64,000 nt of DNA, taken from a virus. How positions within the stretch are numbered: position 1 is the first letter of the stretch; each line of letters starts with the position of its first letter. Where the stretch lies: IMG/VR virus record IMGVR_UViG_3300032087_005129; one strand, given 5' to 3'. Made by a program: the position numbers and the translations under genes. The notes under the pieces were generated by a model. The model was not told the DNA's origin and did not search any database. It was given only the letters and a program-made list of their open reading frames with translations. This document shows, piece after piece, positions 6,594 to 49,335 of this stretch.

Positions 6594-7004
6594 ATGATAC
6601 GAGAGTCTTATTCATCATTTGATTCGCTGATTCAGGCAGCCCTTGGTGTCATGGGGCAAAATACTGAAGATCATTATGGTAAAGATAAGAAAAAAGATCC
6701 TCAGGCGATGAACTATGATGTTGATACTGATCATCAAATTATAATGATGAGTGAAGATGCAGACCTCGAAGAGATTACAGCAAAGAGAAGATTTGTTGTT
6801 CGTGGTGGTAAAAAAATACGAAAGAAAATCTGCGGTCCAGGCTTTCGTTTAGTTGGTGGCAAGTGTAAAAAGCAAACTGCGAGAGAAAAACTTGCAAGAA
6901 AACTTGCAGCAAAGAAAGCAGCGAGAAGAAGAAAAGGTAAAAACCCTGCCATCGCACGAAGAAGAAAACGATCATTGAGAAAGAGAAGGTCATTCGGGTT
7001 ATGA
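6594..7004 (+). CDS. gp68: Prohead core protein, gp68-like
   Basis: Very Arg/Lys-rich C-terminus (RKLAAKKAARRRK...RKRSLRKRRSFGL) after acidic LEE; position before gp21. Confidence 0.6.
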   Translation: MIRESYSSFDSLIQAALGVMGQNTEDHYGKDKKKDPQAMNYDVDTDHQIIMMSEDADLEEITAKRRFVVRGGKKIRKKICGPGFRLVGGKCKKQTAREKLARKLAAKKAARRRKGKNPAIARRRKRSLRKRRSFGL

Positions 7005-8550: not shown

Positions 8551-9195
8551 ATGAAACTGATTACAGAAGTTAATGAATCAATCAAAGTCCTTGAAGAACA
8601 GTTCAACGGTGAAAAAAGATATTTCATCGAGGGTATCTTTCTTCAAGCAGAAAAGAAAAACAGAAACGGAAGAGTCTACCCAAAAGAGACTCTGAGGAAA
8701 GAAGTTAAAAAATACAACAAAGAATTCGTAGAGCAGAATCGTGCGTTTGGCGAACTCGGTCACCCCGATGGCCCAACAGTTAATCTTGAGCGTGTCTCTC
8801 ACATGATTACTGAACTCTACGAAGACGGTGACAACTTTATTGGCAAAGCAAAGATTATGACAACGCCTTATGGCAAGATTGTGGGTAATCTGCTTGCTGA
8901 TGGCGCCAAACTCGGTGTCTCTTCAAGAGGCATGGGATCACTCGAAGAAAAAGGTGGCGCAAACATTGTTCAAGATGACTTTACTCTTGCTACAGCAGCA
9001 GATATTGTTGCTGATCCATCCGCACCTGATGCTTTTGTTAATGGCATTATGGAAGGAAAAGAGTGGGTCTGGGATAATGGTGTTCTTCAAGAGGTGCAAA
9101 TTGATAAATACCATAGATCGATCAAAAAGGCTTCGTCTAGAGACTTGTCCGAAGCAAAAGTTAGAGCGTTCAAAGACTTTATTTCACGGCTCTAA
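8551..9195 (+). CDS. gp21: Prohead protease
   Basis: MKLITE, NRNGRVYP, GELGHP, GVSSRGMGSL, DIVADPSAPDAFV. Confidence 0.97.
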   Translation: MKLITEVNESIKVLEEQFNGEKRYFIEGIFLQAEKKNRNGRVYPKETLRKEVKKYNKEFVEQNRAFGELGHPDGPTVNLERVSHMITELYEDGDNFIGKAKIMTTPYGKIVGNLLADGAKLGVSSRGMGSLEEKGGANIVQDDFTLATAADIVADPSAPDAFVNGIMEGKEWVWDNGVLQEVQIDKYHRSIKKASSRDLSEAKVRAFKDFISRL

Positions 9196-31993: not shown

Positions 31994-33594
31994 CAGTGGA
32001 AAAATATTTCTTTGAAAAAAATGAACACGTTCTTCAATCAAGCATCAATGTTTTTTTTGAAGAACTTCTTGATATGTCTCAAGATGAATTTCGGCAGTGG
32101 GTGATTGACTATCGTAAAACTATGCTTGAGTCTTGGGATAGATACGGTTGCCCGCCTCGATCTGGTGCAGACGAAAAGAAAATTGTAAAGTCTTTCAACT
32201 CATTGTCATCGCACCCTGTTCACAAGTTTGAATACACAGACAAACTTGGCTGTTCGTTCGGTAAAAAGAACGATGTTATTCTCAACACAGCGAGAGCAGG
32301 CACAGAAGTTGATCAATTCTTTCCGACTATGATGAAAGCAAGAATCAACTACAACATCAAAAGCGATGGTCACTCTGTATATGACATGTTTAACGATGAT
32401 AAGTTTCTTGAGAGAATGGTCAAGGGTAGTCAACGACATTTCAAACGAGATAGTTTCTATCACTACAGCCACACAATGAAACTTGGTGATCCATCAAACA
32501 TTATTAGTGCAGATAGTGGTTTTGATTTCTGTGAGAAGTGTTGTCAAAACAAAAAACTCATGGAGTCAATGGGTTACGATTATTGGATTAGTGAAAAAGA
32601 AGAGTCTGAAGGATTGTCTACAGGCTATTATCAAATCGATCAATCAAAGCAACTCTCTCTGAGTGCTGAACAAGTCAAAGTATTGTATGATCGAGGTTGC
32701 TTTACAGAACGAAACATTTCTAATATTGATGTGAATGATTTGAAAGCCGATCACGTTTACATTCTTCGTTTATTCAAACTTGGTCACAAGGTGTTTCCGA
32801 AAGCGTTTACTGCATTCAAGATTGGTTACATTCAAGTCGCAGTAAACTTTCCGCCTATGACTGCAAAGTATCTCTATGAAAGGTTCACGGAACATGTCAA
32901 AGATCAAGAAACTATTCGAATTTATGATCCGTCATCGGGCTGGGGCGGTCGTATTCTTGGTGCTATGTCCGTACGGGATGATCGTCGGATTCACTATATT
33001 GGCACAGATCCTAATCCAGAAAATCAGATCCCGAAAGAAGGCATAAGTCGCTACGACTATCTTGCCAACTTCTTCAACGAAAATACATATCGTGGCAATG
33101 GTGTATTCAGTCACTCGAATACATTTGAGACATTCGATGAGTGTGCCGAAGACATCAAGAACAATCCAGACTTTCAGAAGCACAAGGGTAAACTTGATCT
33201 TGTATTCACATCGCCCCCATACTTCAACCGTGAGGGCTACGCAGATGACGCTAAACAGTCGTATCAGCGTTATCCAGGCTATCAAGGGTGGGTAGACGGG
33301 TTCTTGCGACCAACGCTTGAGACGGCGGTTGAGTATCTGCGTCCGCAAAGATATCTTCTCTGGAACATTGCTGACATTCTGATGGGTAAAGAGTACATGC
33401 CACTCGAAGAAGACTCGAAGAAGATTCTTGAATCTCTCGGTATGGAGTACAAAGGTTTTCTTAAGATGGCAATGGCATCAATGCCTGGTCAAAACCGATT
33501 AGATGAAAACGGTATTCCCAAGTGCAAGAATTATTGTCAAGTGAAGGGGCAGTACCTTAAGTACGAGCCAGTGTTTGTTTTCTGGAAACCTTAA
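31990..33594 (+). CDS. DNA amino-methyltransferase (N4-C/N6-A type) with long N-terminal extension
   Basis: YDPSSGWGGR SAM motif, YIGTDPN, FTSPPYFNRE catalytic motif. Confidence 0.8.
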   Translation: MTVEKYFFEKNEHVLQSSINVFFEELLDMSQDEFRQWVIDYRKTMLESWDRYGCPPRSGADEKKIVKSFNSLSSHPVHKFEYTDKLGCSFGKKNDVILNTARAGTEVDQFFPTMMKARINYNIKSDGHSVYDMFNDDKFLERMVKGSQRHFKRDSFYHYSHTMKLGDPSNIISADSGFDFCEKCCQNKKLMESMGYDYWISEKEESEGLSTGYYQIDQSKQLSLSAEQVKVLYDRGCFTERNISNIDVNDLKADHVYILRLFKLGHKVFPKAFTAFKIGYIQVAVNFPPMTAKYLYERFTEHVKDQETIRIYDPSSGWGGRILGAMSVRDDRRIHYIGTDPNPENQIPKEGISRYDYLANFFNENTYRGNGVFSHSNTFETFDECAEDIKNNPDFQKHKGKLDLVFTSPPYFNREGYADDAKQSYQRYPGYQGWVDGFLRPTLETAVEYLRPQRYLLWNIADILMGKEYMPLEEDSKKILESLGMEYKGFLKMAMASMPGQNRLDENGIPKCKNYCQVKGQYLKYEPVFVFWKP

Positions 33595-34634
33595 CCCAAC
33601 TCATCTGGATCGTAAGGGTACATATAGTCGCTCAGATCATCAGGTGGTGGATCTTCACCCAATAGATATCTGATTAGAACACCAAATGGACCGTCATCGT
33701 TTTCGAATTGTGGCGCTGTGAAGTTTTCATAGAAACGTGTAAGGTCACGATACAACTCATCTCGAACGTCGCTAGGCATATCTACATTGTCTAGCAATTC
33801 AACTAAATTGCTAAACATATCTGTAAGTTGTGTTTGATATCTAATCATGTTTTCAAGAACACCGAGAATGTCGCCTTGTCTTATAGACAAGATAAGACTT
33901 TCACGAATGCCTTCAATGGCCTGTGACATTTGGGAAGCATCGCCTGGTAAACCAGAGAGTATAGTTTGAATGTTAGAGATGTAACTTAAAATCTCATCGT
34001 AATTGTCTGGTCGAGGTTGAAGATTCATAAAGGAATCTAAAAAATCATCCAAAGCAGCATTGTTCATAATAAAACTATTCCACCTTTGATCGACATCAAA
34101 ACTTATTTCCCAATTTACTTTAAGATTAAGTTCGTCATAACGTACACCAATACCATATCTCAAAGCAAGATATTGTAATAGATTTTCTTCGCCCATATCA
34201 CTATATTGCAACAGTATTCTAAAAATACTTTGTCCATCACCCACATTTGCAGGAACATCAGGTGAAGCAAAATCTAAGGCTCTTATGAAACGAAGAAGAT
34301 CATTGAGTAGTTGACTGCTAACTGATGGGGAATCCATTTGATTTGGATTTAAAAATTTAGAAAACTGCCGAAAGAATGCCGTCTTGATCGCACTATCTGG
34401 TTGATCTTGTAGAATAGTAGCAATCAGTTCTACCATGTCACGAAAGAAATCGCTTTGTGGAATTGTTATGTCAATTTCTGGAATAGGAACAAACTGTCCG
34501 GCTGGGGTTCTTCCTATTTTTGATGGTTTTGCTCCAGGACGAGGACGAATTGGTGTTGGTTTATCACCAAAAAATCTTCTCGGTGGTGGTATCATCTTTT
34601 CTTGTAAAAGCAATAGTCTTTGTTTCCAATGCAT
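33591..34634 (-). CDS. Helical paralog family member 1 (MHWK leader), candidate head cargo
   Basis: MHWKQRLLLLQE followed by a Pro/Arg-rich segment; clearly similar to 34661-35653. Confidence 0.75.
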   Translation of the reverse strand: MHWKQRLLLLQEKMIPPPRRFFGDKPTPIRPRPGAKPSKIGRTPAGQFVPIPEIDITIPQSDFFRDMVELIATILQDQPDSAIKTAFFRQFSKFLNPNQMDSPSVSSQLLNDLLRFIRALDFASPDVPANVGDGQSIFRILLQYSDMGEENLLQYLALRYGIGVRYDELNLKVNWEISFDVDQRWNSFIMNNAALDDFLDSFMNLQPRPDNYDEILSYISNIQTILSGLPGDASQMSQAIEGIRESLILSIRQGDILGVLENMIRYQTQLTDMFSNLVELLDNVDMPSDVRDELYRDLTRFYENFTAPQFENDDGPFGVLIRYLLGEDPPPDDLSDYMYPYDPDELG

Positions 34635-34660: not shown

Positions 34661-35653
34661 TTATCTGATAATCTCAAACTCAGGTGGCAAGTCTTCACCC
34701 ATTAGATATCTAATTAGAGCACCGAATGGTGTGTCAGGATCCCCAAATTGTGGCGCCGTAAAGTTTTCATAGAAAGTTTCTAAATTACGAATTACTTCTT
34801 CTCTAACGTCGGCGGGTAAATCTACGGTGTCAAGTAGATCAACCATATCACTCATCATGTCTGTAAGTTGTGCGTGATACCTAATCATATTTTCTAGAAT
34901 GCCAACTACATTACCTGAGTTGATAGATTCAAGAAGTTGATCTCGTATCACTCTCATCGCATCTGCATTTGCTCCTTCACCTCCAAGACCAAGTAGTATG
35001 CTTTGAAGATTGCCAAGTTCGTCAAAAATGTATCTTGGTGGTTCTGGTTCAATGCCTGCAAGATCCTCCATAATTTTGTTAAATGGACCATTTTCTCCGA
35101 TCCAACCCATCCAATCTCTGTACACATCAAATGTTATTTGAGCATTAATTTTGATATCGAGTCTTTCGACGGTGAGTCCGTAACGCAAGGCAAGAAACTG
35201 TAGTAGTTCTGCTGGATTCATATCGCTGTAACTGGTTATTAATTCAAGAAGTCTTGTTGGGTTTCCTAGATTTACTTGGACATCTGTGCCAAAATCTCCT
35301 AAAAGTCTTAGGTGTCTTAGAAGGTCATTTAATTGTTGACTGGTAATTTCTGATGAAGAGCCAGTGGATTTTATAAATTCAGAAAACTGACGGAAGAACG
35401 CCGTTTTTATTGGACTGTTTGGTTGATCTCTATAAATTTGAGCAATCAAACGAATCATGTCCCCAAAGAAACCACTTTGAGGAATTGTAGTGTCAATATC
35501 TGGAATAGGAACAAACTGGCCAGTTGGGGTTCTTCCCAATTTTGGTGGTTTTGGTCGAGGACCAGGACGAATCGGTGTCGGTCTTCCACCAAAATTTCTT
35601 GGTGGTGGTATCGTTACTTCTTGTAGTAGTAGTAGTCTTTGTTTCCAATGCAT
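34661..35653 (-). CDS. Helical paralog family member 2 (MHWK leader)
   Basis: Identical 12-aa leader; shared IKTAFFRQFS, LALRYG, LENMIRY, FYENFTAPQF. Confidence 0.75.
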   Translation of the reverse strand: MHWKQRLLLLQEVTIPPPRNFGGRPTPIRPGPRPKPPKLGRTPTGQFVPIPDIDTTIPQSGFFGDMIRLIAQIYRDQPNSPIKTAFFRQFSEFIKSTGSSSEITSQQLNDLLRHLRLLGDFGTDVQVNLGNPTRLLELITSYSDMNPAELLQFLALRYGLTVERLDIKINAQITFDVYRDWMGWIGENGPFNKIMEDLAGIEPEPPRYIFDELGNLQSILLGLGGEGANADAMRVIRDQLLESINSGNVVGILENMIRYHAQLTDMMSDMVDLLDTVDLPADVREEVIRNLETFYENFTAPQFGDPDTPFGALIRYLMGEDLPPEFEIIR

Positions 35654-35655
35654 AG

Positions 35656-36027
35656 TTATAATCCTATTTGATCACCAATATTTATTCCAATTGTGTCAGC
35701 AACTCCTGAGTTTAGTTCTATTGCGTACATGATTGGTCTGTCAATTGGGTAGTCTGATTGTGTTCGATGATACATGGTTTGTTTGTCAACGACGTAGCCG
35801 TTTGAGTCAAGGCCAAGAATATCTAAATCCATTTTGCAGTTTTTCATCGTGAAACTTCTTGGTTGCTCTTCAGGAAAAACAAAAAGCATACCTCGATTCT
35901 TTGGCATACTTTTTCTAAACATTAAACCGAGTCTTTGCGACGTATCTGTAAGTGCAAGATCAAGAATAAAGTCATAATTCTTAATCTTCATCAAAACTTT
36001 TTTAAGTGGTTTAAAGTAAGATTTCAT
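35656..36027 (-). CDS. DUF192 family protein
   Basis: RLGLMFRKSM...GMLFVF...FTMKN..LDI...YAIELNSG...IGD. Confidence 0.85.
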   Translation of the reverse strand: MKSYFKPLKKVLMKIKNYDFILDLALTDTSQRLGLMFRKSMPKNRGMLFVFPEEQPRSFTMKNCKMDLDILGLDSNGYVVDKQTMYHRTQSDYPIDRPIMYAIELNSGVADTIGINIGDQIGL

Positions 36028-39140: not shown

Positions 39141-39746
39141 TTACATGATTTTTGACACATGCTGATAGATTCGAGCAGAGCATTTTTCATGCGGTTTACA
39201 TCGAAATGTTTTAGGCATCATTTCTGGATCAATCAAAGTAGACCACCTTGCTTTTGGCCATCTTTTTTCTTGAAACGAAACCCAATGTGAGTACAAATAT
39301 GCATTTGCACGAACACGAAAGGTATTTATCTCATTCTGACACTGAAGAAGGCCATACTCTTGTAGCAATTTTTCTGTTCGAATTTCGCAGTCTCGTTCCA
39401 TTTCGATTACTTTTTTCATTGCATCAAAAGCAAGATCTTTATCATCATGTATACCATTCACCCATTCGAGAAATACCATACATGGACATCGACCGTCTTC
39501 TGTTTTTGCTGTGTATTTTGGCTCACCTTCAAGCCACTGACACATGTGGCAGTATTCATGTGCAAGTGTTTGCACCCACTTGCTTGATTTTTTTGCCACT
39601 ACGAGAGATGTCTCATCGAAATAGCCTGATGCTCTGCAACGCTCACCTGTATTTACTGCCTGGTGATTAGAAAGAACAAAGCGAATGCCGTGTTCTTTGC
39701 ATTCGCTTCGTACATAATCGATGAGTTTTTTCTCTTCTGAGAGCAT
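39141..39746 (-). CDS. HExxH metallopeptidase-like protein
   Basis: LAHEYCHMCQW...MERDCE. Confidence 0.6.
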   Translation of the reverse strand: MLSEEKKLIDYVRSECKEHGIRFVLSNHQAVNTGERCRASGYFDETSLVVAKKSSKWVQTLAHEYCHMCQWLEGEPKYTAKTEDGRCPCMVFLEWVNGIHDDKDLAFDAMKKVIEMERDCEIRTEKLLQEYGLLQCQNEINTFRVRANAYLYSHWVSFQEKRWPKARWSTLIDPEMMPKTFRCKPHEKCSARIYQHVSKIM

Positions 39747-39754
39747 ATAATTAT

Positions 39755-40861
39755 TTATGTTTGGCGATCACCTTTTGCAACAGCATCACCAGATCTGTTG
39801 AAGTTGATCATTGTTTGTACTTCAAAGAATTCTTTTGGCAGTTTACCCTTCAAAACATCGATTAACACAGAGGGAACTCTAAGTTTACAGTCAAATGGCC
39901 TTTTGCCAACACGAAGAGATTCGTACTCTTCTTTGCCAACAGATTCGAGTGAATAACGATTAAGCAATTCTGAACTAAACACAAAGTCATCTGGTGTGTA
40001 ATCAATCTCTATGATGATTGGTATTCCTCTTTTTAGAAAAAGATCAACCATCGCAGACTGATATGATTTTTTGTCACGATTGATCAAAGCCTTGAAGTAT
40101 TTCTTGAACAAAGGCATCGATGCTTTTCCTGTTGGTGTCAAAATTGGATATTCTTTCTTCAATTGCTGCAACTCATCCCACCGCCCATAAGATTGATGAA
40201 ACATTTTCCACAAACGCTCTCCTGCATTTGGTAAGTGTGCCTTATTAGTGTTGAATTTTGCTATGGTGTTTTCGTTGTGAACACGAAAAGCGTTATCGAT
40301 GTTTACAGAGGCACCTGCGATTGCACCAGAAAACTCTAGAGCAATTTCTTCTGATATAGTCCAACTTTCAAGTTCTCGTTTCGGTGTGTATCTAAATTTT
40401 TTGACTGCGGTGTTGCCTTCGATTTTGAACTTTGATGGATCACGAAAAAGTTTCATTACATTTTTTCTCATTTTTTCATCGACGCCATATTCTGACATCA
40501 CAATATTTTCCATATTGATACCACGATACAAAACTTTTGATTCTGGAATCAAGTCTTGAGGAAAAACATTTCTAAACTTTTGAAATATGTTGAAGAATGA
40601 AGATGGAAATTTCAAATCGTTGTGACGAACCCATATGTTCATAACATACTCGAAGTAGTCTTCAATGGGTGTGTTTCTTTCTTTGTCTCTTTTGAGTTCA
40701 CCAAAAAAGATTTTACCAAATGCTTCACGAAAATCTTTCTCCGTTTTGATCAGAGATAAAACTTCTTTTGCGGCTTTACTATCCCGAATCTTTGTTAATG
40801 GACTTGCATAGTCGGCTTCAGGATCATAATCATCAGTTAGATAATTGAAGAATTTTTTCAT
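39755..40861 (-). CDS. Putative ADP-ribosyltransferase (R-S-E type) with CTS-like leader
   Basis: VLYRGI ... ESWTISEEIALEFS ... EEYESL; leader MKKFFNYLTD. Confidence 0.6.
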   Translation of the reverse strand: MKKFFNYLTDDYDPEADYASPLTKIRDSKAAKEVLSLIKTEKDFREAFGKIFFGELKRDKERNTPIEDYFEYVMNIWVRHNDLKFPSSFFNIFQKFRNVFPQDLIPESKVLYRGINMENIVMSEYGVDEKMRKNVMKLFRDPSKFKIEGNTAVKKFRYTPKRELESWTISEEIALEFSGAIAGASVNIDNAFRVHNENTIAKFNTNKAHLPNAGERLWKMFHQSYGRWDELQQLKKEYPILTPTGKASMPLFKKYFKALINRDKKSYQSAMVDLFLKRGIPIIIEIDYTPDDFVFSSELLNRYSLESVGKEEYESLRVGKRPFDCKLRVPSVLIDVLKGKLPKEFFEVQTMINFNRSGDAVAKGDRQT

Positions 40862-41187
40862 CGCATTTTCTTTTTGAGATTTGTGAACTTTCTTTTGACT
40901 GATGGTGTCTTCATTTCTTTTTCAACGGCTGTGATTGCATCGACGAACAAACGAACGATACCATCGTCGCTCATTTCTCGTGCAAGGTAATCTGTATCAC
41001 CTTTCTTTTCAAGCCGATCAGCAAGATTGCGAAGTCTTTTTGCGACCTGACTGTTCAATGTTTTGAGTGTCATTGAACCATATCCACGAACAAGAATGTT
41101 AGGATTGTCTACGTCACCGATGTTGCTGAAGTCTATTCTTCCTGCTGGTTGACTTTGTTCGTAGAGGTAGTTGTAGAAGTCTTTCAT
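40858..41187 (-). CDS. Small protein with CTS-like leader
   Basis: MKDFYNYLYE start. Confidence 0.65.
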   Translation of the reverse strand: MKDFYNYLYEQSQPAGRIDFSNIGDVDNPNILVRGYGSMTLKTLNSQVAKRLRNLADRLEKKGDTDYLAREMSDDGIVRLFVDAITAVEKEMKTPSVKRKFTNLKKKMR

Positions 41188-41504
41188 TTGTTCTTTTCTT
41201 TCGTTATCTTTTTCATCTTTTCAATGTACTTTCGATACACAGCGGCTTCTTCTTTCTTGCCCATCACCTTTGCTCTTTGTTCCATGGCGATTGCTGCTTG
41301 AATTTTATGAGCATGTGTTCGATTTGATGACTCAATTTTTTTGACTGATGCTTCGGCGGTTTTTACATCTTTAAACCCAAGACCGTGAATTGTTCCTTTT
41401 GGATTTTCGTCAGTGTAAAGATCGCTGTGAGTATCAGGGTCTTGATTCTTACGAGTCTTGGGTATACGCTTGCCTTCATCAAAATATTCTAGAAATGATT
41501 TCAT
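41184..41504 (-). CDS. Small basic protein with CTS-like leader
   Basis: MKSFLEYFDE, then HSDLYTDENPKGTIHGLGFKD domain. Confidence 0.7.
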   Translation of the reverse strand: MKSFLEYFDEGKRIPKTRKNQDPDTHSDLYTDENPKGTIHGLGFKDVKTAEASVKKIESSNRTHAHKIQAAIAMEQRAKVMGKKEEAAVYRKYIEKMKKITKEKNK

Positions 41505-41514
41505 GCGTGTGTCT

Positions 41515-44199
41515 TTATTTTTTTACGAAGTCTGATCTTTTCTTTGGTGGTCGACCTTTGATCTCATAGCCTCTGAGCAATTTTAACTCTATTTTTGCTT
41601 GTGTTGAAGCATGTGGAATGTCAGCCAAAGCAATAACTATCAAGTCGTTGTTAGAGTAGTTACTGATATAGCGAAGCATTTGCTTTACTGCACCAGGCAA
41701 ATCTTCTTTGTCACCTCTAAAGCCACCCTTGTAACTTTCATTGCCATACGCTTTACTTAGTTTCTTAATGTCTTTGTCGGTGTACAAATCTTTTTTGCTG
41801 TAGTGATCACTTTCATTGATGCTTTCATCCTGCGCACGTCTTACAGCATCCTCATGATCCCGGCGAATTTTTTCGTAATCTACATCAAAGAAATTCTTTG
41901 GAATTTTAATTGGTTTACGGTCTTCATCAGCAATATCTCGTATAAACTTTGCTTTTTTGTGTGCTTGTCTGGCCGTTTTTTCAATTTCTGGAGTTGCCTC
42001 GATTCTACGAAATTTACCACCAACATTTTTCAACACAGTTCCTAATAGTTCAATATGTTTGAGTGAAACTCCACGAACAGGCTTGTATTTAAAGGACACT
42101 TTTCTTCGTTGTATTGTGTAGTCTTTTTCTGACCTTACAATACCATAATCTTTAAGAAAATTAGCATATCTTTTTGGGTTATGCCAAGTATCTAACTCAA
42201 CTACAAAGGTGCTTGCTTTTTGCTCATTGATGCCCATGCTTTCCATGATATCATCAACATCAAGATACATGTCGGTTTGTGGATCGTAATACTTACCAGC
42301 CTTTCTATCATAGTAATAAATCAGACCCGTTTTCTTGGTGCGATACGGTCCTTCAAGACCTTCTCTTTCACGATTTGGGAAACGCTCGCGGTCGATAGGT
42401 GATACACGATTCTTGTTCTTGTATCTTCTATAGTGATCTCTTGCAGACATCTCATCAATTTGTAGGTCCTCATGCAATTCACCTTTGTATTGCTTTGCCA
42501 ACCTTTCAATATCGTTTCTCTCGTAGTCGTTTGGGTGCATGATGACTTGAACAATTTCTTCAGGACTTCTATCCCCGTCATATCGGTCTACTTCACTTGC
42601 GAGTTTATCTCGCATGATTCGTCGCATGAAGGCACCGGCTTTCATTGGGTTTTTAAATTTAAATTCTATTGTGCTGCCTTCATCAAGTTGCACAGACTCA
42701 CTGAATTCAGAAAATGAAACCTCGCTCACAGCCGAGATGCCGAATCGTCGTATCTCTGAACTAAACACTGCACCAGCAAACAACTTGTTTGCTATTTGAT
42801 GTGCTTTTTGATTATTCTTAAAGGAAACATAATAGGTATCTTCGACAGGTCCTTTTTGATTTCCAGCAACAAAGTGGAATTTTATGCCTGCTTTTTTAAG
42901 TTCTCGTTCGAACTCTTTTCGTTTTTTGGCATAATGTGCTTTGTCTTGTTTACTGGCATACTTGCCTGTCTTCATAAACTTATCATTGAACTCAACAATA
43001 TTAGCCTGCTCAAGTTTCATTACCTTATTCATCGCCTTAAGCAAATCTTTAGGTTTGAATTTATGAACGTTGTCTGCTCTTGCTTCGTAGTCACCATAGC
43101 CACTGAGGTTCATGTCATTCAGAACACCTGCAATCTCTTGCTTGGCTTTCTTGTTTAACCCCTTGATCATGCCTTGTATGTCACGGGCTGCTAGTCCTTC
43201 AAATTGAATTGGGGGACCACCAGGATTAACAAGTCCAGGTGCTGGTCTTCGACGACCAATTTCTCGACGGCCAGGACGATATTTTCCTGTTTTTTGTTTC
43301 TGAGCAACTTGAGGTAAAAATGGAAGAGTTGGATTTGTAAGACCTCCACCAAGAGGTCCTTGCTCATCAACATGCACAGATTCTCGATAAAAATCAGGAA
43401 CATTATTTTTTTTGAGAACCTGACCAACTTTTGCACCAGGAAGATTATCAACCATCTGACCAGGCTGCACTAATTTACGGGCTTGTTTTTCTGACAAACC
43501 AACACGAATGATGCTGCCGTATCTATCTACGATTGCAAAACTTTTCTTTCCATAGTAAGCAGAACTATTTTTTGGTGGGTTGTAAACTTTTGATTCATCA
43601 AGTTTCTTAGAACCTTCATAGATGGTATCGACCAATTTCAAGCCGTGCTTCTTGAGCAACTTCTCGAACCTCGGCCAATTTCCTCTTTCCTTACGAAATG
43701 TGAACACAGCCTTTTTCTTCCGAGATTGAAATACTATGTTATGAAGGCCAAGAAAACCTGGTAGTTTCTTAAGTTTGGGATCACGAGTAATACTCTCATA
43801 TGAGTTTTGATCAGCGTCTACAACAAACTTGACAGTCACATTATTTTCGTCAATCTGAACACCTTCTTTGATTGCGATGAGTTTAGCAGTTTTGCCACCG
43901 CCCAAGTCTTGTGTGTCACCAAGTTTCTTGATCTTTGGCCCCATCATCATATCAGCCACGGGGTGAACTTGAAAACCAAGTTCTCTACCACCATCAATAA
44001 AGTAAAAACCATCACCTGGTTTGGCGTGCTTATCGAAGTTTTTTAACATTTTTTTGTATTGTTTTTCAAAGCCAAACTTTTTGAGTTTTGCTAAAAAGAC
44101 TCTTGAGTCCATGTCGAAATCTTTGAACGCGGTTTTCACGGTTTCGTCGATGTGGTGATTTTTGCTTTCATTGAGTGTTTGTTTCATCTTCCAATGCAT
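41515..44199 (-). CDS. 894-aa modular protein; putative gp21-processed polyprotein of about 10 basic domains
   Basis: MHWK leader; recurring linkers EGVQIDE, EGSKKLDE, ESVHVDE, EQANIVE, ESVQLDE, EDLQIDE, ESMGINE, ESINE. Confidence 0.7.
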   Translation of the reverse strand: MHWKMKQTLNESKNHHIDETVKTAFKDFDMDSRVFLAKLKKFGFEKQYKKMLKNFDKHAKPGDGFYFIDGGRELGFQVHPVADMMMGPKIKKLGDTQDLGGGKTAKLIAIKEGVQIDENNVTVKFVVDADQNSYESITRDPKLKKLPGFLGLHNIVFQSRKKKAVFTFRKERGNWPRFEKLLKKHGLKLVDTIYEGSKKLDESKVYNPPKNSSAYYGKKSFAIVDRYGSIIRVGLSEKQARKLVQPGQMVDNLPGAKVGQVLKKNNVPDFYRESVHVDEQGPLGGGLTNPTLPFLPQVAQKQKTGKYRPGRREIGRRRPAPGLVNPGGPPIQFEGLAARDIQGMIKGLNKKAKQEIAGVLNDMNLSGYGDYEARADNVHKFKPKDLLKAMNKVMKLEQANIVEFNDKFMKTGKYASKQDKAHYAKKRKEFERELKKAGIKFHFVAGNQKGPVEDTYYVSFKNNQKAHQIANKLFAGAVFSSEIRRFGISAVSEVSFSEFSESVQLDEGSTIEFKFKNPMKAGAFMRRIMRDKLASEVDRYDGDRSPEEIVQVIMHPNDYERNDIERLAKQYKGELHEDLQIDEMSARDHYRRYKNKNRVSPIDRERFPNREREGLEGPYRTKKTGLIYYYDRKAGKYYDPQTDMYLDVDDIMESMGINEQKASTFVVELDTWHNPKRYANFLKDYGIVRSEKDYTIQRRKVSFKYKPVRGVSLKHIELLGTVLKNVGGKFRRIEATPEIEKTARQAHKKAKFIRDIADEDRKPIKIPKNFFDVDYEKIRRDHEDAVRRAQDESINESDHYSKKDLYTDKDIKKLSKAYGNESYKGGFRGDKEDLPGAVKQMLRYISNYSNNDLIVIALADIPHASTQAKIELKLLRGYEIKGRPPKKRSDFVKK

Positions 44200-44229
44200 T
44201 GTTGATTCCTTGTTGTAAGCACTTAGAAC

Positions 44230-44260
44230 TATTTATTCAAACGCCAAAATCGAATAAATA
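44230..44260. promoter_or_regulatory. Back-to-back divergent late promoters (AATAAATA on both strands)
   Basis: tatttattc-N13-gaataaata inverted repeat between divergent MHWK/MHYL genes. Confidence 0.65.
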
Positions 44261-44344: not shown

Positions 44345-44707
44345 ATGCATTATCTACAGAAACAACTTCTTGAAGAAGAGAAGAAAAAAGCCAAACTGAA
44401 TGCTGGTCATTGCAAGACCGAAGGAAAGAAAAAGACTAAACTGAATGCTGGTCATTGCAAGACTGAATCTGAAAAACTTGATGAGCAAAAAGGTCAAAAG
44501 TTTAACTTTGCAAGAGCAAGAAAAGTGTTCGAGAAGCACTGGCGCGAAATGGAAAGAAAAGTTGTCAATGAACTTGTTCAACCATACGAGGGTCGAGGTC
44601 CTGTGAATTATGATCTCAAAGCCGAACGTCAAGTCTCTGACTACTTTGAAACCAACACAGAAGATCTTCTTGATTACATCACAGAGAGATTCGAAGACCT
44701 CAACTAA
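44345..44707 (+). CDS. Hypothetical protein, MHYL leader, internal repeat
   Basis: MHYLQKQLLEE; KLNAGHCKTE twice; ESEKLDE linker. Confidence 0.7.
   Translation: MHYLQKQLLEEEKKKAKLNAGHCKTEGKKKTKLNAGHCKTESEKLDEQKGQKFNFARARKVFEKHWREMERKVVNELVQPYEGRGPVNYDLKAERQVSDYFETNTEDLLDYITERFEDLN
44393..44463 (+). repeat. 26-bp direct repeat, 45-nt period
   Basis: aaactgaatgctggtcattgcaagac at 44393 and 44438. Confidence 0.9.
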
Positions 44708-44723
44708 CTAGGGGATAGCATAC

Positions 44724-45005
44724 ATGAACTTTAAAGATAAACTACAAGAAGCATTCGAAGCAGGCTATCTTCAAGGTCTGAGCGAGTCTACTACTATTGA
44801 CACCTCATCATATCGCAGAAGTCACGGTAAGTCACCAAATCCAAATGAGTCAGGTGGCTGGTCTTTTGGCACGAAACCTTTCAGTCGATCTGATGATGAG
44901 ATTGTGTATGAATCGCCCAACAAGATGCCATATAAAGAGGCGAAAAAAGAAGCAGAAAAGATTGCAAAGAAAAAAGGTCTGAAAAAGATCTACGTTCAAT
45001 CGTAA
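44724..45005 (+). CDS. Small protein, LQEAF..GY leader
   Basis: MNFKDKLQEAFEAGYLQGLSE then YRRSHGKSP...GGWSF domain. Confidence 0.7.
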   Translation: MNFKDKLQEAFEAGYLQGLSESTTIDTSSYRRSHGKSPNPNESGGWSFGTKPFSRSDDEIVYESPNKMPYKEAKKEAEKIAKKKGLKKIYVQS

Positions 45006-45014
45006 GGAACAAAA

Positions 45015-45404
45015 ATGAACTTTGAAGACAGACTACAAGAAGCATTTAAAGAGGGCTATCGTCAGGCTATCAACGAGCAAAAGAAACCTCTTGGTCCGAG
45101 GAGGCCTGGTGCTTTACTCAAAAAGGCTTATAATCCCAGAAAGTATTTCACTGCACATGTCGAAAAAGAATTAGTTAGTGTGTATAAAAAACTCATGGCT
45201 CGCCTAAAAAGTGATTATGAAAAGAAAGCGTTTGAACAAACTTTTCCTTTTGAACTTGCTGATGAAATAAAGGAAAGAGTCGAGAATCTTTTCGATGGTT
45301 CTTCTATGAGAGATGAACTGATTGATATGTATCGCAATGACTTCAAGAAAAGGGATAGACTCAAGGATTATGACAATAGGGTAAGACATGGATTTCGTAG
45401 GTAA
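45015..45404 (+). CDS. Small protein, LQEAF..GY leader
   Basis: MNFEDRLQEAFKEGYRQAINE. Confidence 0.7.
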   Translation: MNFEDRLQEAFKEGYRQAINEQKKPLGPRRPGALLKKAYNPRKYFTAHVEKELVSVYKKLMARLKSDYEKKAFEQTFPFELADEIKERVENLFDGSSMRDELIDMYRNDFKKRDRLKDYDNRVRHGFRR

Positions 45405-45413
45405 GGAACAAAA

Positions 45414-45764
45414 ATGAAAAATCTAGAATCATCAATTCAAAATATTCTCAATGAAGAGTACATTGAAGAAAACATCGACAAAGTAAAAGATCTCTATGAC
45501 AATCGAAACATTGTTTCTACACTTAAAGAGGGTGATAGTATCTTTGTTGGTTTTGAATACATCAAACACGATGGATCATCAGAAACAAAGGGGAAGATTT
45601 TTATTGTAGATCAAGTCGAGACATTAAGGAATGGCATAATTAGGGTTTTTCTTGATCATCGAACTTCTGACGATTACGTTCTATTCCTTGATAAAAAAGG
45701 CATGTTGGTTTTTCGGAATCCAAATGGTATGAGATTAGTAGTAAGTAGTATTTCAAAGAAATGA
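45414..45764 (+). CDS. Small protein, MKxLES leader
   Basis: MKNLESSIQNILNE-EYIEE. Confidence 0.7.
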   Translation: MKNLESSIQNILNEEYIEENIDKVKDLYDNRNIVSTLKEGDSIFVGFEYIKHDGSSETKGKIFIVDQVETLRNGIIRVFLDHRTSDDYVLFLDKKGMLVFRNPNGMRLVVSSISKK

Positions 45765-46699
45765 AAAGACTTGAATCAACAATCCGTGGCTTGATCAACG
45801 AAGAGACCATTACAGAAGGTGGTCATCACGACGTTATATCTGCCAAGAATCAAATTAAAATTGCTCGTGATGCATTAGACAAGATGGAAAGAGGACTGTC
45901 AGGGCTTGACGATGAAGGCTCACTACCTTCATGGTGGACAAACAAAGTCGCAATTGCTGTTGACAAACTTGATGGCATGGCAGATTATCTTTCAACACAG
46001 ATCAAAGAAGAAACTATCTCAGAAGCAAAGCGTGGCCGAATCAACGCAGAGTACATATTTCCTCTTCGAACGAAGGCTGCCGTAAAGAGTTTCATTCGAG
46101 ATATTGATGCTGTTGCTGATCGTGTTCGAAATCAAATGCCAGACAAAAGAATCGTAAAGGCTCTTATGATCTATAGAGATTCGAGCAGCACAACGAATAA
46201 TGAATTTAACCCGCCAAACGATAAAGAATATTTCGTGACTGTTCTTGTGACAAGCAAAACTCTTGAACTTGATGAACTCAAAGAGGTTGATCGTTACTTC
46301 AAAGAATTCAAGAAGGGCCTTCTCAAAGCAGCCAAAAGTGATAATCGTATCATTGTAACTGCCAAAGTCAAAAAGAAACTTGGCGAAGCAGCCATTAATG
46401 AAAACCTTCAGAGCATGGACAATGACAAAGCAAAAGACATCTATGACAAACTTCGAAAAGGTAGTATCGTAGAAGTCAAGATCGGTAATGCTATTGCAAG
46501 CCAATTAAAGCCAATTCGCCTTGTAGTTACTAGTGGTCATCGTATTGTAGGTAAGTCAAAAGTAGGACGTATTATTCTCGTAGATGAAAAGAATCCACGT
46601 GGCATGAAATACAAACTATTTGATCGAGATGGTACAATTCGCCTTGCTCAAAGTGATATGGCAACCATTCTCAAAGACATGAAGATAGTCAAGAAGTAA
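45761..46699 (+). CDS. Three-module putative polyprotein, MKxLES leader
   Basis: MKRLESTIRGLINE-ETITE; linkers KE-ETISE and GE-AAINE. Confidence 0.7.
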   Translation: MKRLESTIRGLINEETITEGGHHDVISAKNQIKIARDALDKMERGLSGLDDEGSLPSWWTNKVAIAVDKLDGMADYLSTQIKEETISEAKRGRINAEYIFPLRTKAAVKSFIRDIDAVADRVRNQMPDKRIVKALMIYRDSSSTTNNEFNPPNDKEYFVTVLVTSKTLELDELKEVDRYFKEFKKGLLKAAKSDNRIIVTAKVKKKLGEAAINENLQSMDNDKAKDIYDKLRKGSIVEVKIGNAIASQLKPIRLVVTSGHRIVGKSKVGRIILVDEKNPRGMKYKLFDRDGTIRLAQSDMATILKDMKIVKK

Positions 46700-46994: not shown

Positions 46995-49328
46995 TTAGGA
47001 AGCAACCGCCGCAATGAATTGATTGGCGAACACGCGGGCAGCCTTGCCGCCACCCAGTTGCTTCTTGAAGGCATTCTTGACTGACTTCAAGCCAGCATTC
47101 TCTTTCAGCCCTTCGAGAGCCTCAGAGTTGTCTTCAATACTGATGTTCTTGGATTCGATTGTGAAGTGAACATCGAAATTCTTGTGATTGTCACGCTTGA
47201 TGAAGCCAGTCTCGGAGAAGTTTTTCAACTGCTCTTCGGACAGGCCCATGCGTTGGAGCCACCACTCACTCGTTTCGCCTTCAGCAGCCTCCTTCATCGC
47301 CTTTTTCAATTGACTCTGGCTGCGGAAGTTGCTGGCGAGATGAATGCCGATCAGATTAGCGCCAGTACGATCACGAATGACTTCGAGCAATGCTTCATCG
47401 CCGTGATTGAACCACTTACGACCTTGAGCCGCATAAGAACTCAATGGGTACAAGTTGCCAGTCACGGGATCACGCAATACGACCTTCTTCGATTGGCCGT
47501 TTTCATCCCAACGAACATAACTCTCATTGCGAATCACTTTCGTTCCGTCGCCGTCAGTCAGAAACAGGACGTTGGTGACTTGCACGCCAGTCTGCTTTTG
47601 AAACTGAGGAACGAGATGAGCGGCCGAAAGCATCGCCTCTTGAAGTGGCGTGCCAGTCAGACCGATCCAGCGAGGTGGGTGACAATCAGAGTAGTGCAAA
47701 CGATTCTTGGCATTGCCGCAATAGTAGTCACGAATGGTCAACAGGTTGCGCCAGCATTGACGCCACTTCGCACCCTTCAAGGATGTCGAAGCAAACTGCC
47801 AAAGTTGAAATTGATTGTTGAATTCATTGCCAGCAAACTTCGATGACCAAAGTTGACGATTGTTTTCATCATCTTCGGGACGGAACGGGTTGCCGTAATA
47901 GCCAGGATCAGCGAAGGCGTAAACTTCACAAGGCAAGCCAGCCTTCTTGCAGAAGGCAATCATATTCAGCAATTGGTCGAGAGTGTCACACATGTAATCA
48001 CTCATCGAGCCTGACCAGTCAAGGAAGAAAACGAAGCCGTGATTCTTGCCATCAGCAACCGTAGTGCGAGACAGGAAGATATTGTCATTGAACTTGTACT
48101 CGTGAAGACGATTCATGTTCAACATGCCAGTGCGAGACTCAGAAGTACGACGATGTTCATCGGCAGCCTTCTTCAATTCGAACTCTTTGACCATTGACAT
48201 GACCAAGGACTTGTTTCGTTTGTCCCAAGCCTTTTCACGCTCTTCTTGGCGATCATCAACAATGTGTTGAGTCAGTGTCTCATGCAACTTGCCAGCAGGA
48301 AGCACAATCTCAGACAGATCAGGAGTTGGCAGATCAAAAGTGCCGACTTGCATAGAGCCGTTCTCTTGTGAAGCCTGCTCAGACTTCGAACGCATTGCCT
48401 GATCGAAGTTTTCTTGAGACCAGCCAGGATCGCCCTTGCCGCCTTCGCCGTCAGCAGAGCCAGTGCTTTCAGTTGACTCGCCTTCATCGCTCTCGGCATT
48501 AGAGCCATCGTCGTTTGAATCTTCGCCTTCGAGAGAAGCATCGCCTTTGCTGTCGCCAGCATCGCCGTCGCTATCGCCTTCAGACTCAGAATCGCCAGAC
48601 TCAGAACTTTCTTGACCAGACTCAGAACCTTCTTGAGAAGAAGACTCACCAGTTTCGCCAGCCATGTCGCCAGCATCGGGGTTGTCACCACTCTCGACAT
48701 CAGAACTTACTTCTGGTTGCTTCTGGTCTTGGTTGCTCTTGGTGTATTCGAACAATTCTTGAGCCAGGGCTTCAACATCAGCCCAGGTATTCAATGAATC
48801 AAACTTCGAAAGCCAGACTTTTTCATCATCAGAGAACTGAACACCCGATTGGGTGCCAGCCTTGAAATGAATATTCAGTCGGTCGAGCAAATGGGCCCCG
48901 TCAGGTGACAGGTCCTTGTCAGAAGCACCGAAGAAGTCTTCCGCCCACAAGTGGCGATACCCATGCACGAATGAACGGCGAAGACCAGGATACTGTTTTT
49001 GAATCATTCGCTCGATCCGAACATCTTCAACAATGTTCAGACAAGTATGAGCCAATTTTTTGTCAGACGAGACTCCTTTAGAGACTCGCTTGACACCCTC
49101 AGACCAATCGTTGCTGTCGGTGTTGAGGGCATGAGAAACCTCGTGAGCAACGAATAGGTCGTAAACTTCGGAGGTCATGCCTTTCAACACTGGCAGAATC
49201 AACTCTCGATTCTCAAGGTCAAAAGCAGCAGTCTGGGCAGCCGAATCGTGCGTGACCTGAAGGTTCTCGCCAGCGAGAAGGCGGGCGAGCAGGTCTTTCG
49301 CAGTAGTGTTAGGGACTCGGGTACTCAT
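46995..49328 (-). CDS. HExxH metallopeptidase + acidic linker + vWA (MIDAS) protein, CobT-like partner of MoxR AAA+
   Basis: AHEVSH, NIVEDVRIE, Ser/Asp/Glu/Gly linker, LDWSGSM, GTPL, FLTDGDG. Confidence 0.88.
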   Translation of the reverse strand: MSTRVPNTTAKDLLARLLAGENLQVTHDSAAQTAAFDLENRELILPVLKGMTSEVYDLFVAHEVSHALNTDSNDWSEGVKRVSKGVSSDKKLAHTCLNIVEDVRIERMIQKQYPGLRRSFVHGYRHLWAEDFFGASDKDLSPDGAHLLDRLNIHFKAGTQSGVQFSDDEKVWLSKFDSLNTWADVEALAQELFEYTKSNQDQKQPEVSSDVESGDNPDAGDMAGETGESSSQEGSESGQESSESGDSESEGDSDGDAGDSKGDASLEGEDSNDDGSNAESDEGESTESTGSADGEGGKGDPGWSQENFDQAMRSKSEQASQENGSMQVGTFDLPTPDLSEIVLPAGKLHETLTQHIVDDRQEEREKAWDKRNKSLVMSMVKEFELKKAADEHRRTSESRTGMLNMNRLHEYKFNDNIFLSRTTVADGKNHGFVFFLDWSGSMSDYMCDTLDQLLNMIAFCKKAGLPCEVYAFADPGYYGNPFRPEDDENNRQLWSSKFAGNEFNNQFQLWQFASTSLKGAKWRQCWRNLLTIRDYYCGNAKNRLHYSDCHPPRWIGLTGTPLQEAMLSAAHLVPQFQKQTGVQVTNVLFLTDGDGTKVIRNESYVRWDENGQSKKVVLRDPVTGNLYPLSSYAAQGRKWFNHGDEALLEVIRDRTGANLIGIHLASNFRSQSQLKKAMKEAAEGETSEWWLQRMGLSEEQLKNFSETGFIKRDNHKNFDVHFTIESKNISIEDNSEALEGLKENAGLKSVKNAFKKQLGGGKAARVFANQFIAAVAS

Positions 49329-49335
49329 CACCTAG

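Follow-up and report, generated by a model that had tools for sequence, protein, structure and literature searches.

The window analysed here, a stretch of 64,000 nucleotides from the virus record IMGVR_UViG_3300032087_005129, derives from an uncultured marine T4-like myovirus; its closest relatives in isolation are the pelagiphages Mosig and HTVC008M and the methylophage Melnitz. An open reading frame of 894 amino acids beginning MHWK (P0001) was found where the preliminary description had placed it without a strand; it lies on the minus strand. The gene and the features adjoining it are as follows.

44230..44236, minus strand: late-promoter-like motif ATAAATA (context GAATAAATAG), 37 nt upstream of the polyprotein ATG
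44206–44211: AAGGAA, ribosome-binding site of the polyprotein gene
41515..44199, minus strand: polyprotein gene, 894 aa, stop codon included in the coordinates
40858..41504, minus strand: two small downstream genes with leaders resembling the T4 CTS, MKSFLEYFDE and MKDFYNYLYE
44345..46699, plus strand: divergent array of leader-bearing putative cargo genes

The placement of a NATAAATA-type motif 5' of the ATG, here at 37 nt, is shared with structural genes; ATAAATA also occurs 17–42 nt upstream of those at 951, 3419 (portal), 4961, 9236 (scaffold) and 14054. The possibility that the reading frame is an assembly chimera was rejected because 894-aa copies of identical length are present on six independent contigs. 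Clustering at 90% identity or above grouped nine sequences from JGI and ENA metagenomes, and at least 70% of sampled P0001 words were recovered from 18 seawater runs belonging to 9 studies. Only small parts of the gene were present as contigs in two metatranscriptome libraries, in which DNA carry-over is possible, and they do not demonstrate transcription.

All ten linkers previously listed were located in the protein. They separate ten modules, given below from the amino to the carboxyl terminus, all on the minus strand.

44143..44199: aa 1–19, a stub of 8 residues (MHWKMKQT) and the first double site LNE-SKNHH-IDE (aa 9–19)
43873..44142: module 1, aa 20–109, pI 9.7; covered by 63 relatives, elsewhere in their chains
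43846..43872: linker IKE-GVQ-IDE, aa 110–118, pLDDT <50
43624..43845: module 2, aa 119–192, alpha/beta domain, pLDDT 71–85, pI 10.1
43594..43623: linker IYE-GSKK-LDE, aa 193–202
43390..43593: module 3, aa 203–270, pI 10.0
43363..43389: linker YRE-SVH-VDE, aa 271–279, bordering a 165-nt skip in wild contigs
43207..43362: module 4, aa 280–331, Gly/Pro/Arg-rich, disordered, pI 11.7
43198..43206: single junction QFE, aa 332–334
43015..43197: module 5, aa 335–395, helical, pLDDT 76–84
42991..43014: junction (K)LE-QAN-IVE, aa 396–403
42706..42990: module 6, aa 404–498, pI 9.8
42679..42705: linker FSE-SVQ-LDE, aa 499–507, the copy nearest to the family consensus
42478..42678: module 7, aa 508–574, ferredoxin-like beta-alpha-beta-beta-alpha-beta fold, pI 6.2
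42451..42477: linker LHE-DLQ-IDE, aa 575–583, pLDDT <50 at aa 578–583 and 579–584
42250..42450: module 8, aa 584–650, OCRE-like beta-meander, the most widespread module, phrog_13298
42223..42249: linker IME-SMG-INE, aa 651–659
41833..42222: module 9, aa 660–789, pI 9.9
41812..41832: short linker QDE-S-INE, aa 790–796, with the spacing of the T4 CTS (..YQE-F-IAE)
41518..41811: module 10, aa 797–894, pI 9.6

The first 19 residues (MHWKMKQTLNE/SKNHHIDE) constitute a leader of approximately 10–20 residues with an L/I-x-E end, as in a T4 CTS, and the same segment can be aligned with the internal linkers (MNESVDLDE) found ahead of module 1 in relatives. The earlier view of the modules as about ten small basic domains holds for the charge of nine of them (pI 9.2–11.7, 6–16 kDa), but the pI of module 7 is 6.2, and module 4, rich in Gly, Pro and Arg, is a disordered stretch and not a folded domain. 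Their proposed designation as effectors or nucleoid proteins is unsupported, since no module has an assignable function. Pfam analysis of the polyprotein returned a single sub-threshold match, to OCRE, and no embedded peptidase, MuF, ArdC-N or other conflict domain. Module 8 scored 18.5–21.2 bits against OCRE (PF17780), under the Pfam gathering cut-off of 24.7, while 26 of 59 of its relatives matched that family at an E value of 0.01 or better; a search of BFVD weakly matched the module to a phage protein that bears the OCRE label, and an Atlas feature search of the module gave no usable result. Module 8 is OCRE-like only. Module 7 matched CutA/S6/ACT/HMA-type folds by structure with Z scores of 7–9, a generic range, and the model of the whole polyprotein had no match in the PDB at an E value of 0.001 or better.

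Linkers falling inside folded domains had been named beforehand as evidence against a chain of separable units. AlphaFold modelling placed them outside: the low-confidence gaps coincide with the linkers and lie between confident domains. In the model of modules 7 and 8 (mean pLDDT 74), values below 50 were confined, within the interior, to aa 579–584 and 594–597; the C-terminal residues 654–662, which hold the next linker, also fell below 50. Of the full-length model, 60% is of low confidence. The last linker (QDE-S-INE) sits in a low-confidence predicted helix and counts against this picture.

The description of the linkers as inter-domain junctions of a modular chain was borne out by comparison with 239 metagenomic relatives, in which 71% of 795 internal BLAST alignment ends lay no more than 6 aa from a linker (21% expected) and whole modules were lost or reordered. 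Relatives delete, insert and move modules precisely at linkers, so the putative cargo set changes quickly. The median module length among them is approximately 82 aa, and the first module is often a domain of 100–125 aa instead of a short leader. Variants in which module 4 is skipped between linkers (nt 43199–43363, 165 nt, absent) were observed in two DNA studies and one RNA library, the full form being present too. Seawater contigs likewise yielded variants that skip module 9 exactly from linker to linker, and module 9 is missing from five relatives (P0004–P0008). In another (P0129) the order is the leader of gene 44345, module 9 of this polyprotein and then the 44345 cargo. Modules were found both alone and in other orders, two arrangements that the preliminary description had proposed to look for; module 2 also occurs in two-module proteins of 203 aa. 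At 50% identity, 685 clusters match this single polyprotein. A search of a viral contig collection for loci related to P0001 returned no relative, and no homologue of the whole chain was found in a cultured phage among 50,697 phage records; in a tblastn search of these records with P0001 and P0018, the only match was an 84-aa hit to module 8 in Vibrio phage 1.081.O. The 81-aa module 8 relative in a KVP40-like Vibrio phage adjoins rIIB. The genome of HTVC008M contained no E-x-V-[QE]-x-D-E coding pattern.

The protease to which cleavage had been attributed is encoded in the same window, as is a second prohead protein.

8551..9195, plus strand: prohead protease of the T4 gp21 type; His71, Ser125 and Asp151 align with the T4 enzyme
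6594..7004, plus strand: prohead core/scaffold-type protein (phrog_3503) with a double site MSE-DAD-LEE before a very basic tail

The identification of gp21 was confirmed by matches to phrog_207 (E 6e-80) and to the structure of T4 gp21 (5JBL, E 1.7e-23), and alignment places the enzyme in the gp21 family (S77) with an intact His-Ser-Asp triad. T4 gp21 cuts on the C-terminal side of Glu where P3 is hydrophobic (Φ-x-E). Judged by their residues, the linkers fit this rule in the form of a cut after Glu in L/I-x-E, and the propeptide of the major capsid protein of this phage contains FLKE|AAP. At the junction first given as KLE-QANIVE, IVE fits Φ-x-E but KLE, with Lys at P3, does not. A complex prediction for the protease with aa 563–600 of the polyprotein gave a score of 0.00 and was counted neither for nor against cleavage.

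Double sites of the form Φ-x-E-x(1-5)-Φ-[DNV]-E occur eight times in the polyprotein; 5000 shuffled sequences had a mean of 0.23 and never more than 4. Across the remaining 56 ORFs of the window, 16 doublets fall in 16,842 aa, making the polyprotein approximately nine times denser. The refuting outcome named beforehand, doublets no commoner here than in replication proteins, was assessed against these ORFs and did not arise. Single Φ-x-E sites showed no overall enrichment in the polyprotein (20 against 17.6). Among relatives, 357 distinct linkers gave the consensus Φ-[KRN]-E-[DS]-V-[QE]-L-D-E, which amounts to a pair of L/I-x-E sites, with [LIVM]-x-E-[DS]-V-Q-L-D-E common to relatives. The linkers of this window retain the pattern Φ-x-E...Φ-[DN]-E despite different codons and variable middle residues, which argues that the peptide pattern itself is conserved.

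Several modules also exist as single genes. In relatives, the mature portions of three products of the divergent array (44345, 44724 and 45761) are found inside polyproteins as modules, and the second downstream gene (MKDFYNYLYE) corresponds to one module within a protein of 622 aa in the relative L002. Stand-alone forms of module 8 carry short leaders; P0282, for instance, starts MAKIFEEVELDE|K and continues into module 8. The stand-alone product of 44724 reads ..GLSE|STTIDTSSYRRSHGK where polyproteins have ..VELDE|NIVSDKLYRASHGK at the same place, and on such alignments the leader of single genes and the linker of polyproteins are equivalent in position. Both MKSFLEYFDE and MKDFYNYLYE resemble the T4 CTS MKTYQEFIAE, itself a YQE-F-IAE doublet. 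Short leaders ending in Φ-x-E on single-gene modules would be expected if the mature products were the separate modules.

Taken together, these data favour, with reasonable though far from complete confidence, a late-expressed cargo polyprotein that is packaged in the head and cut apart by the prohead protease. The full-length chain would be built into the prohead core, where the gp21-type serine protease would cut after Glu at both Φ-x-E sites of each linker. Cleavage would release about ten basic proteins of 6–16 kDa, which would stay with the DNA like the T4 internal proteins, while acidic spacer peptides of 4–8 residues would leave the head; we infer that the retained modules are later ejected. 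It is plausible that a single leader serves the whole chain. In addition, the linkers are exchange junctions at which modules are lost, gained and moved between genes. Since ten modules are joined by linkers resembling protease sites, one gene probably serves to fill the capsid with an interchangeable set of small proteins.

Two properties of the sequences would suit a chain that is never cut. In relatives, the synonymous sites of the linker DNA are conserved (Val GTG 12/16, elsewhere 25%; Leu CTT 14/16, elsewhere 34%; Gln CAA 14/14, elsewhere 66%), so linker conservation may partly reflect recombination or shared descent and not protease recognition. Moreover, Φ-x-E is only weakly depleted within modules, with a ratio of 0.93 over 65 proteins (5 against 8.8 expected in this protein); selection against cutting inside modules is therefore not evident, and depletion of [LIVM]-x-E was dropped as a line of evidence. 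The gene might then encode beads on a string: one long, multi-domain basic protein, for example one that binds or condenses DNA in the head or the cell, with linkers acting as flexible acidic spacers and recombination junctions. This is unlikely, given that the linkers of the window keep their Φ-x-E...Φ-[DN]-E pattern with other codons, that single-gene modules have short leaders ending in Φ-x-E at the same boundary and that the same doublet is present in the prohead core protein.

A cargo released by the prohead protease also has to be distinguished from additional scaffold or core material that the same enzyme cuts but which is degraded and expelled. In T4, cleavage reduces gp22, gp67 and gp68 of the core to fragments, and the scaffold gp22 of this phage is rich in Φ-x-E (42 in 567 aa). 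That scaffold is acidic (16% Glu), whereas the modules are basic, folded and poor in internal sites, and their fast turnover and variation in presence and absence fit accessory cargo better than an essential scaffold; we consider expulsion improbable.

Two other proteins of the window could supply a different peptidase, acting not necessarily in the head.

39141–39746: HExxH protein of 201 aa, weakly SprT-like (E 0.007, below threshold), transcribed in the same direction as the polyprotein
46995–49331: peptidase-annotated protein of 778 aa

Although one has an HExxH motif and the weak SprT-like match, homologues of both lie near polyprotein genes in L002 and L003 and zincin-type peptidases are thought to process polyvalent phage proteins (PMC5512222), cleavage by either is the most doubtful of these readings, since the linkers provide two sites fitting the T4 gp21 rule and the leaders resemble the T4 CTS. 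Closeness of the peptidase/AAA+ pair is weak evidence, because marine T4-like phages generally have this pair as a syntenic block.

A cargo polyprotein cut by the prohead protease would have its closest counterparts in the internal proteins IPI, IPII, IPIII and Alt of T4, which are likewise small and highly basic, with leaders of approximately 10–20 residues and an L/I-x-E end, the same type of prohead protease and a hypervariable locus. In T4, however, each cargo has its own gene, one leader and one cut, whereas here about ten putative cargos are fused, with internal double sites. No homology to these four proteins was detected by Pfam or PHROG matching, and tblastn of the phage records gave no T-even match; the polyprotein would therefore be a functional analogue and not a member of the T4 internal-protein families. 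In phiKZ, 201phi2-1 and SPN3US, which have a gp21-related protease, many head-internal proteins, among them ejection and inner-body proteins, are cut at x-x-E, often at several sites, and propeptides of more than 100 residues are targeting regions, comparable with the first domains of 100–125 aa in polyprotein relatives. The cuts in these giant phages remove propeptides from single proteins, and no account of unrelated modules strung together by one recurring linker was found in the literature on their head processing.

The pp220 and pp62 polyproteins of African swine fever virus and the core precursors of adenovirus are cleaved within the particle, during its assembly, by a protease of the virus. 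The proteases, motifs and viruses are unrelated to those considered here, and these core chains have a fixed composition, in contrast to shuffled cassettes. Polyvalent proteins also combine many unrelated domains, for which co-delivery with the DNA and proteolytic release have been proposed and which their authors likened to RNA-virus polyproteins (Iyer et al. 2017, PMC5512222). They carry recognisable enzymatic or anti-defence domains with an embedded zincin-type peptidase or MuF anchor, whereas the present protein has no embedded peptidase and no known domain, a predicted trans-acting capsid protease and a stereotyped linker. Outside the subscription journals, no description of such polyprotein genes was found in the literature.

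A broader proposal, which we put at slightly under an even chance, is that marine T4-like phages have turned the one-gene-one-leader system of T4 into a cassette system. The linker, 7–11 residues long, would serve as a double protease site, a conserved DNA recombination junction and possibly a repeated capsid-targeting signal, and whatever small protein lies between linkers could be inserted in a polyprotein, co-packaged equally and freed in the head. The cassette reading, if true, would represent a natural modular delivery platform and, for tailed phages, the first polyprotein strategy based on processing in the capsid. Should cleavage and packaging indeed occur, the use of polyproteins, known from RNA viruses and some eukaryotic dsDNA viruses, would extend to tailed phages, here as a means of filling the capsid with small proteins that can be exchanged rapidly. 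This would explain how abundant ocean phages diversify the first wave of injected proteins, among which there may be anti-defence or host-takeover factors. Linker-flanked modules would then offer a simple sequence rule by which hundreds of virion cargo domains could be recognised, and the arrangement would provide a natural model for loading a T4-type capsid with several foreign proteins encoded by a single gene.

The preliminary description of this locus proposed a polyprotein of about ten parts cut by a prohead protease. The open reading frame is real (41515-44199, minus strand; 894 aa, here P0001), and all of the linkers quoted, the acidic junctions between modules, were found in the order given. 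P0001 comprises ten modules of 52-130 aa, numbered from the N-terminus, nine of which are basic (pI 9.2-11.7, 6-16 kDa); module 7 is slightly acidic and module 4 is a Gly/Pro/Arg-rich disordered stretch. Single [LIVMFY]-x-E sites were not enriched in P0001, with 20 counted against an expected 17.6. Eight copies of the double site Phi-x-E-x(1-5)-Phi-[DNV]-E, where Phi is a hydrophobic residue, are present; 5000 shuffles averaged 0.23 and reached at most 4, and the remaining 56 ORFs of the window contain 16 copies in 16,842 aa. The spacers separating the two Glu of each linker are acidic.

The window is part of the genome of an uncultured marine T4-like myovirus, the closest isolates by capsid protein being Pelagibacter phages Mosig and HTVC008M and Methylophilales phage Melnitz (61-63% identity).

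Head-assembly genes of the window
3419-4930, portal (phrog_213)
8551-9195, prohead protease (phrog_207, E 6e-80)
9236-10939, plus strand, gp22-type scaffold (567 aa)
10968-12311, gp23-type major capsid protein

The T4 gp21 structure 5JBL matches the prohead protease (E 1.7e-23), with His71, Ser125 and Asp151 all in place. FLKE/AAP was found in the N-terminal region of the major capsid protein, and a prohead core-type protein (6594-7004, phrog_3503) carries MSE-DAD-LEE followed by a very basic tail. In T4, gp21 removes leaders of 10-20 residues from internal proteins, Alt and gp24, and cleaves core proteins at several sites.

The suggestion that modules might also occur alone was borne out in both the window and relatives, with the leaders of single genes standing where polyproteins have linkers. 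Window gene 44724-45005 begins MNFKDKLQEAFEAGYLQGLSE/STTIDTSSYRRSHGK..., and inside the polyproteins of relatives its homologue follows ...IFEETVELDE/NIVSDKLYRASHGK... or ...GESVEIDE/ATVDTSHYRSDHGR... and is succeeded by the next linker. Stand-alone module-8 genes start MAKIFEEVELDE/K..., MKTFKEFAV... or MKSFHELRKELGE.... Both ends of P0129, a metagenomic relative, are 94-96% identical to window gene 44345, the order being leader of 44345, module 9 of P0001, further modules and 44345 cargo. Genes directly downstream of the polyprotein gene begin MKSFLEYFDE and MKDFYNYLYE, closely resembling MKTYQEFIAE, the capsid targeting sequence (CTS) of T4. This CTS is in its own right a YQE-F-IAE doublet, spaced like the short linkers QDE-S-INE (P0001) and LRE-D-INE (relatives).

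A second polyprotein of the window, of three modules, is the 312-aa product of 45761-46699 (plus strand), with leader MKRLESTIRGLINE and internal sites IKE-ETISE and LGE-AAINE; its last module (aa 212-312) lies inside the polyproteins of many relatives at 65-75% identity. Two paralogues lie in tandem on the minus strand (33591-34634 and 34661-35653). Both begin MHWKQRLLLLQE, with the same initial MHWK as P0001, and continue with Pro/Arg-rich stretches (IPPPRNFGGRPTPIRPGPRPKPP). They matched no family in Pfam or PHROG and are probably further leader-bearing head cargo. A DUF192 protein (PF02643, E 1.7e-25) at 35656-36027 (minus strand) sits among the leader-bearing genes.

The case is at its strongest in the comparative evidence. 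A word-indexed search yielded metagenomic relatives of P0001, 108 of them longer and 140 shorter, and exhaustive phmmer yielded 685 clusters (50% identity) at E 1e-3 or better and 141 at E 1e-10 or better, all marine. Each local alignment spans one to a few modules, with breaks at aa 119, 202, 334, about 400, about 501, 577-587, 653-660 and 794; 71% of 795 internal alignment ends lie no more than 6 residues from a linker, compared with 21% of positions. Close relatives (79-95% identical) are without modules 3 and 4, module 9, or both, or have an extra module after module 1. The linker is very uniform in relatives (consensus Phi-[KRN]-E-[DS]-V-[QE]-L-D-E, 357 distinct copies), with a median spacing of 82 aa. 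Near-identical copies of the polyprotein gene were present in 18 seawater runs from nine studies. In assembled contigs a joint skipping nt 43199-43363 removes exactly module 4, after VDE279 to QFE334; two DNA studies and an RNA library contain this joint together with the unskipped form. Module 9, between the two INE linkers, is left out by a weaker joint (nt 41813-42223). Three T4-like contigs each have a tandem set of two or three polyprotein genes, encoding up to 1353 aa, and two of the three have recognised T4-type genes (gp32, gp19, baseplate protein or Thy1).

Tandem polyprotein genes on metagenomic contigs
L003, 6945-18709
L001, 8640-12373
L002, 8133-12877

In several tandem polyproteins a conserved N-terminal domain (MYFNPPQPGNNPANPFWHPLN..; roughly 120 aa) precedes the first linker; by analogy with giant-phage ejection proteins, this domain may be a long targeting propeptide.

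Structure prediction supports the linkers as true domain boundaries. The full-length AlphaFold model of P0001 (67-sequence alignment) was poor overall, with a mean pLDDT of 48.7, and its confident islands (aa 121-194, 341-396, 509-577 and 584-653) have edges a few residues from linkers. A separate model of aa 504-662 (mean pLDDT 74) predicted two domains, one a ferredoxin-like beta-alpha-beta-beta-alpha-beta fold and the other a helix followed by a beta-meander. In this model pLDDT fell below 50 at the first three residues and at aa 579-584, 594-597 and 654-662, of which 579-584 and 654-662 are linkers and 594-597 is not.

The only Pfam or PHROGs matches to P0001 were a sub-threshold OCRE-like match and phrog_13298, both in module 8. 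Fold searches matched module 7 to generic ferredoxin-like structures and module 8 to small phage proteins. Since these searches gave no functional match, the labels 'effector' and 'nucleoid protein' in the preliminary description are guesses. The scaffold is unusually long, and its N-terminal extension has two repeats of APNMPVLPPDFPPGGGPR(T/S)(R/K)RR and numerous [YM]HEG units. Eukaryotic OCRE domains bind Pro-rich motifs and module 8 resembles OCRE, so these repeats could be candidate docking sites for cargo. The sole cultured-phage relative found was an 81-aa stand-alone module-8 homologue (MKGFNDYHKKGEVKLQE...; 3908-4153 of L005) in the KVP40-like Vibrio phage 1.081.O (MG592456.1); it adjoins rIIB and so does not lie in a late structural cluster.

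The polyprotein ATG has GAATAAATAG 37 nt upstream, and after that motif comes a ribosome-binding site, AAGGAA; the late-promoter box of T4 is TATAAATA. ATAAATA also occurs 17-42 nt upstream of gene 951, the portal, the scaffold and other structural genes. Two back-to-back copies at 44230-44260, one per strand (minus at 44236, plus at 44254), lie in the gap separating the polyprotein gene from the divergent cargo array and look like a divergent late-promoter pair.

The most likely mechanism, in which cleavage, packaging and ejection of the P0001 chain are inferred, is as follows. The polyprotein would be a late gene product built into the prohead core, where the prohead protease would cut after both Glu of each linker, releasing about ten small basic proteins retained with the DNA, while the acidic spacers of 4-8 residues would be lost. 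Two results weaken this case. Phi-x-E sites inside the modules are hardly depleted (ratio 0.93, 65 proteins), and linker DNA of relatives is conserved at silent positions (Val GTG 12/16 versus 25% elsewhere, Leu CTT 14/16 versus 34%, Gln CAA 14/14 versus 66%), so linker conservation in relatives is probably due in part to recombination or shared descent. P0001 might thus be an uncut multi-domain protein in which linkers merely act as spacers and recombination sites, an explanation we regard as unlikely. Window linkers keep the two Glu sites despite differing codons and middle residues, which favours a peptide-level constraint; we read the linker as both putative cut site and exchange junction. 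The basic charge of the modules is compatible with DNA-associated internal proteins, and it is improbable that they are degradable scaffold material and not retained cargo. Processing by a nearby HExxH protein or a 778-aa peptidase-annotated protein is more doubtful still. The former (39141-39746, minus strand; 201 aa) bears the HExxH sequence HEYCH and shows weak SprT-like similarity (E 0.007), making it a possible zinc peptidase, and homologues lie near the polyprotein genes of L002 and L003.

A literature search found no description of such polyprotein genes. The concepts nearest to it are T4 CTS cargo, giant-phage ejection proteins that undergo multiple processing (PMC5694885) and the polyvalent proteins described by Iyer et al., which depend on embedded peptidases and known domains (PMC5512222). 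We regard the polyprotein as a probable variant form of T4-type head cargo processing.
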